This document shows positions 3,114-38,115 of a DNA stretch of 64,000 bases, piece after piece. Within the stretch, counting starts at the first letter, position 1. Each line of letters starts with the position of its first letter. Source of the DNA: Bdellovibrionota bacterium (GTDB lineage Bacteria; Bdellovibrionota; UBA1018; CAIPTA01; JAALKR01). The translations under genes were made by a program, and so were the position numbers. The notes beneath the pieces are model-generated. The model was not told the DNA's origin. It saw nothing but the letters and a program-made list of their open reading frames with translations, and made no database searches. The DNA is taken from positions 64,001 through 128,000 of the forward strand of contig CBDBMJ010000003.1 of NCBI GenBank assembly GCA_965207455.1. The letters run 5' to 3'.

Positions 3114-4235
3114 ATGGAGTGGGTGGTATTTCTTGTTCTTGCTGCTCTAACTGTTCTAGTAGCTGCTCTTGTATTTATTTTTCGTTCTAACAGTAGGGAT
3201 AGGGATTTAGCCCTGATCGCGCTTCAGCAAAACATGATGAAGCAAATGCAAGAGGATGGTGTGAGTTTGCGAAAAGAGTTTAGCCAGTCTTTGCACGAGT
3301 CCATGCAAAATATTTCCACAGTGCTGGGTGGGGTGAGTACTCAGCTCAATAAGCGTATGGAGGAGACAAACACTACTTTGGGTCGCACTCAAAATAATGT
3401 GGGAGATCGGCTCGACAATGCGGCCAAAGTTATCCACAACCTACAAAATCAATTGGGAACTTTGGAGGAGTCCAGCCGACGTATGTTGGATATAGGTCAG
3501 GGGCTTAAAAATTTAGAGAATGTGTTGAGAAATCCAAAAATTCGAGGAAACATGGGCGAGTTTTTTCTAGAGGATCTTCTCAGACAAGTTTTGCCCACGG
3601 GTAGCTACGGCATACAACATTCCTTTCGATCAGGTGTTACCGTAGATGCTGTGGTGTATGTGGGTGATAATCTGCTACCCATCGACTCCAAGTTTCCTGT
3701 GGAGAGTTTTGTGCGTTTTTTGACTATTCCCGATGATGAACCCGACAAAAAGAAAAAAGAATACCGGGCTTTTATTGCCACCATCAAACACCACGCCAAT
3801 GACATTGCTAAAAAATATATTTGTCCCGATGAAAACACCTTTGATTTTGCTTTTATGTATATTCCTGCGGAGAATGTATACTACGAGACTATTATTCGTA
3901 ACGACGGTACAATCAATTCAGACTCCCTATACTCCTGGTTACTACAAAAGAAAGTAATTCCCGTATCTCCTAACTCTCTATATGCTTACCTGCAAGTAAT
4001 ACTGTTGGGTTTAAAGGGCATGAAGATTCAAGAAAGTGCAAAAGAGATTCTCCAGGGCTTAGACCAGCTCTCCGGCGATCTCCGCCGCTTCCAAAGCGAC
4101 TACTCCGTATTGGGAAAGCACATAAAAAATGCAGGCAATACTTTCGAGGGTGGAAATAAATATTTGGAAAAATTTCAAGGTCGTTATGACCAGCTTCTAC
4201 AAACGAAGGAGTATCGTGGAATTACCAAAGAATAA
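3114..4235 (+). CDS. rmuC: DNA recombination protein RmuC family
   Basis: N-terminal TM, coiled coil, RGNMGE, IDSKFP, DFAFMYIPAE. Confidence 0.92.
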   Translation: MEWVVFLVLAALTVLVAALVFIFRSNSRDRDLALIALQQNMMKQMQEDGVSLRKEFSQSLHESMQNISTVLGGVSTQLNKRMEETNTTLGRTQNNVGDRLDNAAKVIHNLQNQLGTLEESSRRMLDIGQGLKNLENVLRNPKIRGNMGEFFLEDLLRQVLPTGSYGIQHSFRSGVTVDAVVYVGDNLLPIDSKFPVESFVRFLTIPDDEPDKKKKEYRAFIATIKHHANDIAKKYICPDENTFDFAFMYIPAENVYYETIIRNDGTINSDSLYSWLLQKKVIPVSPNSLYAYLQVILLGLKGMKIQESAKEILQGLDQLSGDLRRFQSDYSVLGKHIKNAGNTFEGGNKYLEKFQGRYDQLLQTKEYRGITKE

Positions 4236-32214: not shown

Positions 32215-32763
32215 CTATAGGGGACTCACTTGTACGCCGGACTCCACACCTGCCAACGGAACAGCTGTGGCCACATTCGTACGGTGAATCGTTCCCATGG
32301 GAGTTTTTGCCACCGATATCACTAGGGCTGATAACTCATTGTACATGGCACACTTCACGGAATATTCATTTTCCTGAAGCACCACCTGTCGCCCCAAACG
32401 CTCTTTGGTATTGACAACAATGGGTGCTTTTAGGTTCGCCGTCATCTCCCGAACATCCGCAGGAATGGTGAGCACGGAATACACCAAGGTTTTCTCCTTT
32501 TCTAAAGAAGAGAGCTTTAATACACGCAATTCGTTTGCCGATAAACGCACATGATAATCCTTACGAAATACCATTGGTTCCAGTATGGGAAACGCAATCT
32601 CTGAATTTTCCACGGATTGAAACCACAGGATCATGGTCTCGTCCGACGGGTCCACAATAAAATATTGTTTTAGCTTCTCAAAACCCATCATGCCTTCCGA
32701 CAAATGAATAATATGCTCCGAAGCCACATTTAATACACCAAAACGGCTTGTTTTAATCCCCAT
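32215..32763 (-). CDS. fliW: Flagellar assembly factor / CsrA antagonist FliW
   Basis: TSRFG, GFE, WFQS, MTANLKAPIVVN, GRQVVL. Confidence 0.95.
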   Translation of the reverse strand: MGIKTSRFGVLNVASEHIIHLSEGMMGFEKLKQYFIVDPSDETMILWFQSVENSEIAFPILEPMVFRKDYHVRLSANELRVLKLSSLEKEKTLVYSVLTIPADVREMTANLKAPIVVNTKERLGRQVVLQENEYSVKCAMYNELSALVISVAKTPMGTIHRTNVATAVPLAGVESGVQVSPL

Positions 32764-32833: not shown

Positions 32834-33085
32834 CTAGGATTCTTTATCTTCTTTTACGCCACTTTTAATAATATCTGCCATATTTGATACAGATTTAGGG
32901 GAAAGTCCCGCTGCTTCCTTGTTAGAATCTTGAATGGAGGTGTAAATTTCCTCCCGGTGGATTTTTGTCTCCTTGGGCGCCTGTATTCCTAGCCGTACCT
33001 GTTTTCCCTTAATTTGCACAACCATTATCTTAATATGGTCGTCTATGGCTATCGACTCTCCAAGCTTTCTTGTTAAAACTAGCAT
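32834..33085 (-). CDS. csrA: Carbon storage regulator CsrA
   Basis: MLVLTRKLGESI, QVRLGIQAP, IHREEIY plus C-terminal extension. Confidence 0.98.
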   Translation of the reverse strand: MLVLTRKLGESIAIDDHIKIMVVQIKGKQVRLGIQAPKETKIHREEIYTSIQDSNKEAAGLSPKSVSNMADIIKSGVKEDKES

Positions 33086-33182
33086 ATCTTAATCCTCATA
33101 CTCCCTGATGATTTTTCTTTTTTTCCTCTAGGTTATTAGGTGCATACCTGATTTTGCTACATTCAGCAATGGAAACCAGCAT

Positions 33183-36063: not shown

Positions 36064-36115
36064 GAATTTTCCTCCATCCTCCGTGATAGAGATACCGATT
36101 TTCTTCAGCCCCTTC

Positions 36116-36154
36116 AGTTTTGGCCCCTAGTTTTGGCCCCTAGCTTTAGCTCCT
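36116..36154. repeat. 13-bp tandem repeat x3
   Basis: AGTTTTGGCCCCT twice plus a degenerate copy. Confidence 0.8.
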
Positions 36155-36461: not shown

Positions 36462-36516
36462 AACCTATTTCCTTTCTAAAACTCAGTTTTATTGTAACAC
36501 AATAGTTGCTATCAAG

Positions 36517-36834
36517 TCATTCCTTTTTCTGTGTGTGAATGTTGCGAATACCTGTCTGAGCAGGATCCGTTAAGTGGCGAACAATGAGCTCTGCAAGACC
36601 AATCCCCCTACCACTCTCACTTGCTTTCTCTGCATAGGTATCGTCCAACATTCCACGAAATAACTGTAAAGAACGATTATTTTTTGAGTCTGCACTTTCT
36701 GGCACACTACTTCGCATGGCACGAACCAATTGCTTTAAAAAGTTTGCCTCCATGGCACGCGCTGCTTGCACTAACTTTGGGTCCACCCGATCCAGATTTA
36801 CAGGTTGGATAATTTTTGTTGTATTTACCTTCAT
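36517..36834 (-). CDS. flgJ: Rod-binding protein (single-domain FlgJ)
   Basis: AARAMEANFLKQLVRAMR, GMLD, GIGLAELI. Confidence 0.85.
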   Translation of the reverse strand: MKVNTTKIIQPVNLDRVDPKLVQAARAMEANFLKQLVRAMRSSVPESADSKNNRSLQLFRGMLDDTYAEKASESGRGIGLAELIVRHLTDPAQTGIRNIHTQKKE

Positions 36835-36844
36835 AATTACTCAA

Positions 36845-36890
36845 TAAAATAAGGAGATAGGACAGATGAAAAAAACTGCCCTACCCCCCT
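36845..36890 (-). terminator. Terminator-like hairpin just upstream of flgJ
   Basis: GGGGGTAGGGCAG/CTGTCCTATCTCC 13-bp stem (with GU pairs) then TTATTTTATT. Confidence 0.65.
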
Positions 36891-37021
36891 TGTTAGATGC
36901 ACCCAGCATCCATGCCAGCCACTATTATAAAAGAAAAAAAACAATCACCATCCATGGCAGATAATTTTTCTCCATTTCCTGCTTCATATACCAAGACCCC
37001 ATCCTAGAGTCATACATCTAT
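36845..37021 (-). ncRNA. Putative CsrA-binding RNA (CsrB/RsmZ-like sRNA or leader)
   Basis: Three GGA-loop hairpins between a sigma54-like promoter and a terminator-like stem; no ORF. Confidence 0.55.
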
Positions 37022-37031
37022 CAAAAATCTA

Positions 37032-37047
37032 TGCACATTCCTTGCCA
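37032..37047 (-). promoter_or_regulatory. Sigma54-like promoter
   Basis: TGGCAAGGAATGTGCA, GG-N10-GC spacing. Confidence 0.55.
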
Positions 37048-37071
37048 TCTTTTCTACTCTTCGTTTTATTT

Positions 37072-38115
37072 TTAAAATATTTCTAATTCCCCTTCCAAAG
37101 CACCTGATTTTTTCAAGGCTTGAAAAATTGCGGTAAGATCTTTGGGACCAACGCCAATGGTATTTAAAGCTTTTACTAACTCACTCACGCTCGTAGACTC
37201 TTGAATTTCAATTACTTTTTTACCCACACTGCTTAACTGCCTAGTTTTATCTTCTATCTGAATGGATAGGTCTCCGTGTGAAAGCGCAACCGACTTAATC
37301 CGCACTTTTCCTCCTGCTACAATGGTTCCCGTTTTCTCATTGATAACAATTTTAGCTTTTTCGCTAGTATTCACCGTCAAATTTTCCAACACCGCCATTA
37401 ATTCGACAGCATTTCCCTTAAAAGAAAACGGAACAATTAAGTCCACCGTATTACCGTCTACCGTGGTGGCATACTTACCACCCAACTCCATATTAATTCT
37501 ACGAGCCACCCTAGCAATAGTAGTAAAATCATGCTCTTGGGTGTGCAAACGAATAGATTTTTTATTAGAAAAGTTTGCCTTTAGTTCCCGCTCCACAGTT
37601 GCACCACTGGGAAGCCATCCCACTGTACCAAATGTTTCCTTGGTTTCAGACGTGGTCCCAAGACTCACGGAACCTTGTGCAACGGCATAAACTTTTTGAT
37701 CTCCTGCTCGTAACGGCGTTGTCAGCAACGTACCACCACTTAAACTGGCCGCATCTCCCACACTGGAAATAGTTATGTCAATTTTTTGTCCTGCACGCGC
37801 AAAGGGAGGCAACTTTGCTGTTACCACTACAGAAGCCACGTTCTTCGATTCCACATTAGCCCCTGAATCCATTCCCATCTTTTTCAACATGCGACGAAGG
37901 GCTCTTCCCGCTGTTTGACCAGAGGAGTCCCCTGTGCCCCTTAAGCCAACCACAAGCCCATAGCCAATTAAAATGTTTTCCCGTACCCCCTTTACCTTTA
38001 CCACATCTTTTATACGTGCTCCCCAAACCTCCTGAACAGACACTGAAGATAATGTAAACATAATAAAAATAAATATAGAAACTCGCATCGATATCACTCC
38101 CCTCATCTCTCTCAC
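37072..38115 (-). CDS. flgI: Flagellar P-ring protein
   Basis: RIKD, GYGLVVGL.GTGD, SL.GGTLL.TPL, INEKTGTIV, GALEGEL. Confidence 0.97.
   Translation of the reverse strand: MREMRGVISMRVSIFIFIMFTLSSVSVQEVWGARIKDVVKVKGVRENILIGYGLVVGLRGTGDSSGQTAGRALRRMLKKMGMDSGANVESKNVASVVVTAKLPPFARAGQKIDITISSVGDAASLSGGTLLTTPLRAGDQKVYAVAQGSVSLGTTSETKETFGTVGWLPSGATVERELKANFSNKKSIRLHTQEHDFTTIARVARRINMELGGKYATTVDGNTVDLIVPFSFKGNAVELMAVLENLTVNTSEKAKIVINEKTGTIVAGGKVRIKSVALSHGDLSIQIEDKTRQLSSVGKKVIEIQESTSVSELVKALNTIGVGPKDLTAIFQALKKSGALEGELEIF

Follow-up and report, generated by a model that had tools for sequence, protein, structure and literature searches.

What is encoded in the 237 bp that separate flgI from flgJ in a flagellar gene cluster of a member of the Bdellovibrionota? 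The cluster lies on the minus strand of a 64,000-nucleotide stretch of DNA, here called the window, in the order flgF-G-A-H-I-J-M-N-K-L-csrA-fliW. The gap (36835-37071) is preceded by flgI, the P-ring protein gene (37072..38115; Pfam FlgI, E 8e-108), and followed by flgJ, which encodes the short rod-binding form (36517..36834; Pfam Rod-binding). The csrA gene (32834..33085; Pfam CsrA) is found 3.8 kb downstream of the gap in the same cluster, its translation has a C-terminal extension and an asparagine at residue 55. The last gene is fliW (32215..32763; Pfam FliW, E 1e-36), which encodes a protein antagonist of CsrA. The ORF list of the window has no frame of at least 55 amino acids in the gap; a 30-codon frame is present at 37017-36925, this frame is not conserved among relatives. 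The gap contains a conserved and structured element in which three hairpins carry GGA in the loop. We give a probability of about 0.6 to the reading that this element is a stand-alone RNA which sequesters CsrA beside FliW.

All parts of the element are on the minus strand. A sigma54-like -24/-12 promoter with GG-N10-GC spacing (37032..37047), whose activity is predicted, would place the RNA start at about 37021. The predicted small RNA is 179 nt long (36843..37021) and occurs once in the genome. Its predicted fold consists of a basal stem around three GGA hairpins, then a 15-bp hairpin and a U-rich tail. The basal stem (36894..37020) recurs in the folds and pairs 37020-37012 with 36901-36894, three of its six pairs have changed on both sides among relatives. 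In the loop of hairpin 1 (36995..37011) the GG is unpaired with probability 0.99, and four of the seven stem pairs covary. Hairpins 2 (36946..36959) and 3 (36903..36918) each carry a CANGGANG loop, with unpaired probabilities of 0.96 and 0.97. The CAGGAA core (36970..36981), which is conserved in three lineages, contains two additional GGAs (36979 and 36973). These are mostly paired globally (unpaired 0.42 and 0.01, compared with 0.96-0.99 for the three loops), and the core is predicted to be part-paired to a U-rich strand at 36945-36927. The 3' part (36843..36890) resembles an intrinsic terminator (-22 kcal/mol, probability 0.98, 10 of 14 pairs covarying). Its stem of 13-15 bp spans 36890-36851 and its U-rich tail ends at 36843, 8 nt before the flgJ ATG (36834). 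This hairpin is absent from the output of a simple terminator scan with a loop limit of 8 nt. A preliminary description of the locus had listed the sigma54-like site, the three hairpins, the two further GGAs, the stem and the U-rich tail, and all of their coordinates match the sequence.

The sigma54-like site was also considered as a fourth GGA hairpin and rejected, the GGA is absent in three of nine sequences and the spacing is fixed. All nine sequences of the taxonomic order, including the window, have GG at -24 and GC at -12, always at the same distance, and rpoN is present in the genome. The genome has many similar intergenic sites. Contigs C1 and C3 of G000 have about 29 such intergenic sites, many of them 45-80 nt upstream of signal-peptide-like gene starts; we read these as an extensive sigma54 regulon for secreted proteins, in a genome of 2.4 Mb.

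The predicted RNA, taken from its start to the U-rich tail, has a folding energy of -57.6 kcal/mol (z -4.27), and none of 200 shuffles is as stable; for the whole gap z is -2.06. The raw number of GGAs is unremarkable: at least six occur in about 12% of 175-nt windows on this contig strand, and at least five in 1,173 of 2,000 shuffles. It is the placement of GGA in loops that is unusual. By criteria fixed after the sequence had been viewed, here and in the next two comparisons, the gap has four local GGA hairpins, a number reached by none of 500 shuffles, and none of 1,500 random genome windows has three or more. Two stem-closed CANGGANG loops within 80 nt occur at only three places in the genome, two of them in one repeat region and the third in the flgI-flgJ gap. 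By GGA-hairpin count the gap ranks second of 1,358 ORF-free region-strands. The sole region above it (G000:C1:676260-676416, L249:1761-1917) is ORF-free and lies downstream of a 374-aa gene; it is a cluster of overlapping GGA sites with a different layout and was rejected as a similar element. The top raw GGA density of the genome is found near 3870-4040 of the 5.6-kb contig G000:C2, in a tandem 13-nt GGA unit. A covariance model built from the order finds no second copy of the element in the genome. Two other models gave additional hits; those inspected, the second-ranked one of the class model and four weak ones of the Bdellovibrio-type model, were rejected because they lie in coding DNA or are without GGA loops.

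Relatives were compared using 38 stretches from 40 genomes, in 33 of which both flgI and flgJ were located. A search of named genomes with CsrA gave best matches nearly all labelled as Bdellovibrionota groups, and a search of named genomes with FlgI gave no match. The gap is present and GGA-rich in 30 of the 33; in the other three flgJ begins on the flgI stop. All eight gaps from the same order align with the window over their full length. The sigma54-like site with its fixed spacing is present in these eight and in none of the 25 others, and in the same-order alignment the predicted start and the 5' end of the basal stem lie no more than a few bases apart. The preliminary description had proposed a search for covariation across flgI-flgJ gaps. 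Of the 55 pairs in the nine-sequence alignment, 28 have changed on both sides, and 87% of the cells are paired, compared with 39-54% when the alignment is slid as a control; since the structure was derived from the same alignment and the sequences are related by descent, this counts as support and not as a probability. The stems covary while the loop GGAs remain fixed. The GGA is invariant in 9/9 sequences in hairpins 1 and 3, and in hairpin 2 it is missing from one relative (L038); the GGA loops, whose absence from relatives the preliminary description would have held against its proposal, are thus conserved. Across 32 relatives a 230-nt gap has on average 2.75 GGA hairpins, compared with 0.125 for the flgI control and 0.125 for the antisense strand. 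At least three are found in 18 of the 32 gaps and in none of the 32 controls.

GGA-loop elements are found in the same gap across much of the phylum Bdellovibrionota. A further 80 stretches were searched with element patterns tuned on these same sequences, and FlgJ was located in 78. An element with a U-tract is present in family f14 (8/8), f18 (13/16) and f21 (10/10) and in three single-genome families. In family f19, 12 of 13 gaps consist of a short leader instead; as a rule it has an extended -10 box, and one or two GGA hairpins are placed at the ribosome site of flgJ. The csrA gene was found in 79 of the 80 genomes. It is present in families f16, f20 and f24, where the flgI-flgJ gap is absent in 26/26; the element is therefore dispensable and is not required by CsrA. 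No co-loss of the element and csrA was seen in the 80 genomes.

Run on 91 sources, the own-order model gives ten hits beyond its training set, all in sense-strand flgI-flgJ gaps (E 4e-5 to 0.7), and it hits four Bdellovibrio-type gaps weakly (E 0.008-0.6). A model trained on the other orders of the class, with sequences of the own order left out, places the gap of this genome first genome-wide (E 0.001, with 150 of 251 candidates scored). A Bdellovibrio-type model hits seven of the eight relatives from the order (its top hit among them is out of register) and does not find the gap of this genome.

An RNA from this position has already been published. Karunker et al. 2013 report APsRNA1 of Bdellovibrio bacteriovorus HD100 at 499,375-499,581 on the plus strand, 207 nt, with the start taken from start-site mapping and the end from coverage, and with no FliA promoter (PMC3627812, available in part, as for all statements here from that paper). 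In its Table S1 flgI ends at 499,332 and flgJ starts at 499,642 (PMC3627812), the RNA therefore fills gap positions 43-249. The RPKM of APsRNA1 is 50,451 for the attack phase and 3,181 for the growth phase. Table S1 gives 15 and 9 for flgI, 8 and 41 for flgJ and 92 and 1,344 for flgM (PMC3627812); we take the column order to be growth, then attack. On these values APsRNA1 is about 1,000-fold above flgI or flgJ, and 400- to 1,200-fold above flgJ. The authors discarded signals joined to a downstream gene, and they suggested that their RNAs base-pair with mRNAs (PMC3627812). The available part of the paper does not mention csrA or CsrA, gives neither a function for APsRNA1 nor a CsrA link, and reports that no homologues were found outside the species (PMC3627812). 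Our literature search found the term APsRNA1 in one paper only.

APsRNA1, compared here by its coordinates and not by its sequence, resembles the window element in lying in the flgI-flgJ gap, in strand and in size (207 compared with about 179 nt). Nine gaps from genus g74 fit its two ends, with a -10 box at position 32 in eight of nine and a U-tract at 243-255 in all nine; the element of this genus closely resembles the one in a named Bdellovibrio sp. record (L120). In Bdellovibrio-type gaps the parts follow one common order: hairpin, CAGGAAAC, hairpin, hairpin and U-tract. APsRNA1 has a sigma70-like promoter, whereas that of the window element is sigma54-like, and the Bdellovibrio-type RNA is closed by a long-range stem, whereas the window has a local terminator hairpin. 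Because the Bdellovibrio-type model misses the gap of this genome, the tie to APsRNA1 runs through synteny and the relatives. From these sequence comparisons homology of the element to the Bdellovibrio form is likely, by an indirect route. This indirectness, and the different closure of the two RNAs, count against the reading as a CsrA-sequestering RNA.

Two features of the Bdellovibrio-type gaps can be added. In L075, L101, L120 and L197-L209 the stem that precedes the U-tract is formed at long range and encloses about 160 nt and several GGA hairpins, which is unusual for an intrinsic terminator. In L197, L201, L202 and L204, of genus g74, insertions of 300-450 nt with similar, repeat-like ends lie between the U-tract and flgJ and lengthen the gap.

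CsrA is the candidate partner for such loops. The loops of the gap match CANGGANG and the SELEX consensus quoted in the available text of PMC4894983 and PMC7652899. Asn55 of CsrA has been tied to FliW binding (PMC13407953, available in part), so from its sequence the local CsrA can probably bind FliW. The csrA gene of B. bacteriovorus is implicated in predation, and its CsrA represses a hag reporter of Bacillus subtilis and also the mutant reporter (PMC13443453, available in part). The dependence of this CsrA on such sites may therefore be loose, a point against the sequestering reading. In this genome GGA sites are present in three of four flagellin leaders, and in relatives they are found in the flgM and csrA leaders.

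We propose that transcription of an RNA of about 180 nt would begin at the predicted sigma54 promoter and end at the terminator-like hairpin. The exposed GGA loops of this RNA would capture CsrA dimers and free CsrA would fall, which would lift repression from mRNAs bearing GGA sites, for example those of the flagellins and flgM. The RNA would give the system an input set by transcription, next to the protein switch FliW. Production of FlgJ would rely on those transcripts that pass the terminator, in this genome by leaky termination. The preliminary description had put forward a sponge RNA of about 175 nt acting alongside FliW, this proposal gains from the conservation, the covariation and the published discrete transcript of B. 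bacteriovorus in the same gap.

Among the closest known parallels are CsrB/CsrC and RsmX/Y/Z of the Gammaproteobacteria. These also have several GGA motifs in loops and a terminator-like end, and like the element in this genome they are non-coding. Unlike them, the window element has fewer sites and a nested multi-branch fold, lies among flagellar genes in a cluster that also holds csrA and fliW, and has no match to Csr/Rsm or any other relevant Rfam family at gathering score or at E up to 10. Its clearly exposed loops number only three, compared with 22 GGAs reported for CsrB in a partly available source, which counts against the sequestering reading. There is no GacA/UvrY box near the gap; a consensus for this box has one match in the window, 14 kb away, where 2.7 are expected. 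The element would work like CsrB/RsmZ by analogy, which is not a claim of membership. A second parallel is the flaA mRNA leader of Campylobacter jejuni, in which RNA titrates CsrA beside FliW through CANGGANG loops (PMC4894983, available in part). That leader belongs to a coding mRNA, has two sites and is itself a repressed target, whereas the window element is a predicted dedicated small RNA. Our literature search found no other case of RNA titration of CsrA beside FliW.

FliW and BarA-UvrY are strongly anti-correlated (PMC4682653, PMC7652899), and hardly any species, if any, is believed to combine FliW with sponge RNAs driven by BarA-UvrY (PMC4682653; both papers available in part). For Geobacter, the available parts of PMC13407953 and PMC11934962 describe no characterised CsrB/C-type RNA and three predicted ones at other loci. 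A dedicated decoy beside FliW would, if true, break this split. The literature covered by our search, which leaves out most subscription papers, holds no link between the flgI-flgJ gap and CsrA, nor do the available parts of PMC2277423 and of preprint 10.64898/2026.09.22.753630. The view of the preliminary description that this arrangement had not been reported therefore holds for the CsrA link, it does not hold for the RNA, which appeared in 2013 as APsRNA1.

The best supported alternative is that the element acts mainly in cis, CsrA would bind the loops in the operon mRNA and set transcription or translation of flgJ, and the short RNA would be a by-product of termination. In this genome flgJ can be reached only by read-through of the terminator, since its ATG lies 8 nt past the U-rich tail, and the position of the element before flgJ is constant across the phylum. 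The short leaders of f19 place GGA hairpins at the flgJ ribosome site itself. Similar evidence comes from class relatives outside this order, 27 of which were examined (the 33 such relatives without L042, L054, L062, L063, L072 and L079). In 24 of the 27 the flgJ ribosome site is paired within the 3' hairpin, and in two a U-tract comes after this hairpin. In this group a frame opening at the flgI stop runs through the loops in 29 of 33 relatives (5.6 expected from shuffles), its stop usually overlapping the flgJ start. The frame mostly ends at a flgJ start that is sequestered by a hairpin, usually with no U-tract behind it, and a cis role is probably real in this group. Against a general cis switch, forcing the GGA sites to be unpaired leaves the terminator probability unchanged (0.92-0.98) and shifts the cost of freeing its 5' arm by less than 1 kcal/mol in eight of nine sequences (in L032 the wrong hairpin was picked). 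Equilibrium folding found no antiterminator fold that CsrA could switch. Furthermore, flgM has its own extended -10 promoter-like site (36491..36520), with a similar site in six of the seven same-order relatives shown, and in B. bacteriovorus it is expressed far above flgJ. flgJ alone therefore sits behind the terminator, and the leader gating flgJ-flgM that the preliminary description offered as its second option is not borne out for this genome. The excess of APsRNA1 over flgJ in the published data is also large for a by-product. We consider a mainly cis role unlikely, although the two roles can coexist; a cis switch could gate no gene but flgJ here, yet it fits the class group and f19.

It is also conceivable, and in our view rather improbable, that the RNA is real and structured and that its partner is another RNA-binding protein, or an mRNA with which it pairs, the GGA loops serving that partner or stability. 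The most conserved word, CAGGAAAC, is predicted to be paired in two lineages, and the lack of an Rfam Csr/Rsm match points the same way. TwoAYGGAY (Rfam RF01731) is a family with similar loops, having two AUGGAU loops above a basal stem, and the available part of a 2026 preprint on it is silent on CsrA. RF01731 is multi-copy and repeat-linked, whereas the window element is a single copy at a fixed locus; its loops, unlike those of TwoAYGGAY, vary to AAGGAU and AAGGAC in relatives, and the RF01731 covariance model has no match to the gap. The agreement of the loops with the binding consensus of CsrA and the position of csrA in the same cluster argue instead for CsrA as the partner.

In many relatives a start codon overlaps or just follows the flgI stop, and a frame is open through the element; this frame is absent in the window. 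Besides the class group it is found in eight of 16 named loci of the Bdellovibrio type (1.5 expected), in seven of eight in f14 and in 10 of 13 in f18. In this order it is at chance level, two of nine (1.25 expected), and in f21 it is present in one of ten. The frames are 60-185 codons long, and seven of ten tested are present in a protein collection, some as 'hypothetical protein'. Pfam gives no match above cut-off for ten spacer peptides, and the sub-cut-off hits were taken as chance. The arginine codon over hairpin 2 is AGG in 32/32, and adjacent codons change the amino acid while the stem is kept, so the core has been selected as RNA. In genus g74 the APsRNA1 start falls downstream of where the frame begins. 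That the gap is chiefly a small protein-coding gene, decayed in this genome and with GGA words as codons, is therefore very improbable despite the long frames, their entries in the protein collection and a conserved N-terminal W-x-D-F motif with synonymous variation in part of the class, as the RNA features persist where the frame does not.

Where the frame exists, ribosomes leaving flgI would mask the terminator of the long mRNA or make its flgJ start accessible, and an internal promoter downstream of the start codon would yield an untranslated RNA. Our literature search on an open frame after flgI found no paper. In f14 (L154-L161) the frame is in frame with flgJ in seven of eight, so that translation of the RNA element, its long-range stem and its U-tract would add an N-terminal extension to FlgJ. 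In L039, L040, L041, L045, L046, L061, L081 and others the first 20 codons after the flgI stop contain a conserved W-x-D-F-x-L-D-D-x-x-G-P. Its W-to-GP spacing is reminiscent of that in the SecM arrest peptide, and this spacer frame may be a ribosome-sensing leader.

The CsrA-sequestering reading can be extended, at somewhat less than even odds, to the phylum. On this tentative account predators with both RNA and protein antagonists would have independently evolved a CsrA decoy RNA in the csrA-fliW flagellar cluster, derived from a CsrA-controlled flgJ leader. In several lineages it would also be translated from the flgI stop, with ribosomes carrying the mRNA through the terminator or opening the flgJ start and an internal promoter making the untranslated decoy. 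APsRNA1 would be a member and a regulator of the attack-to-growth switch. If true, this would give a function to an abundant, unexplained RNA of B. bacteriovorus. As that predator is genetically tractable and its csrA is implicated in predation, the decoy reading is testable at once.

Two further observations concern neighbouring gaps of the cluster. At 33086-33182 in the window and in the flgL-csrA gaps of L039-L064, a promoter-like site and a GGA hairpin lie just before csrA in many class relatives, which suggests autoregulation. The flgM-flgN gap contains two or three copies of a 14-nt repeat (36114-36152), contigs from a sequencing run that cover this stretch have a 2-nt deletion at 36114.
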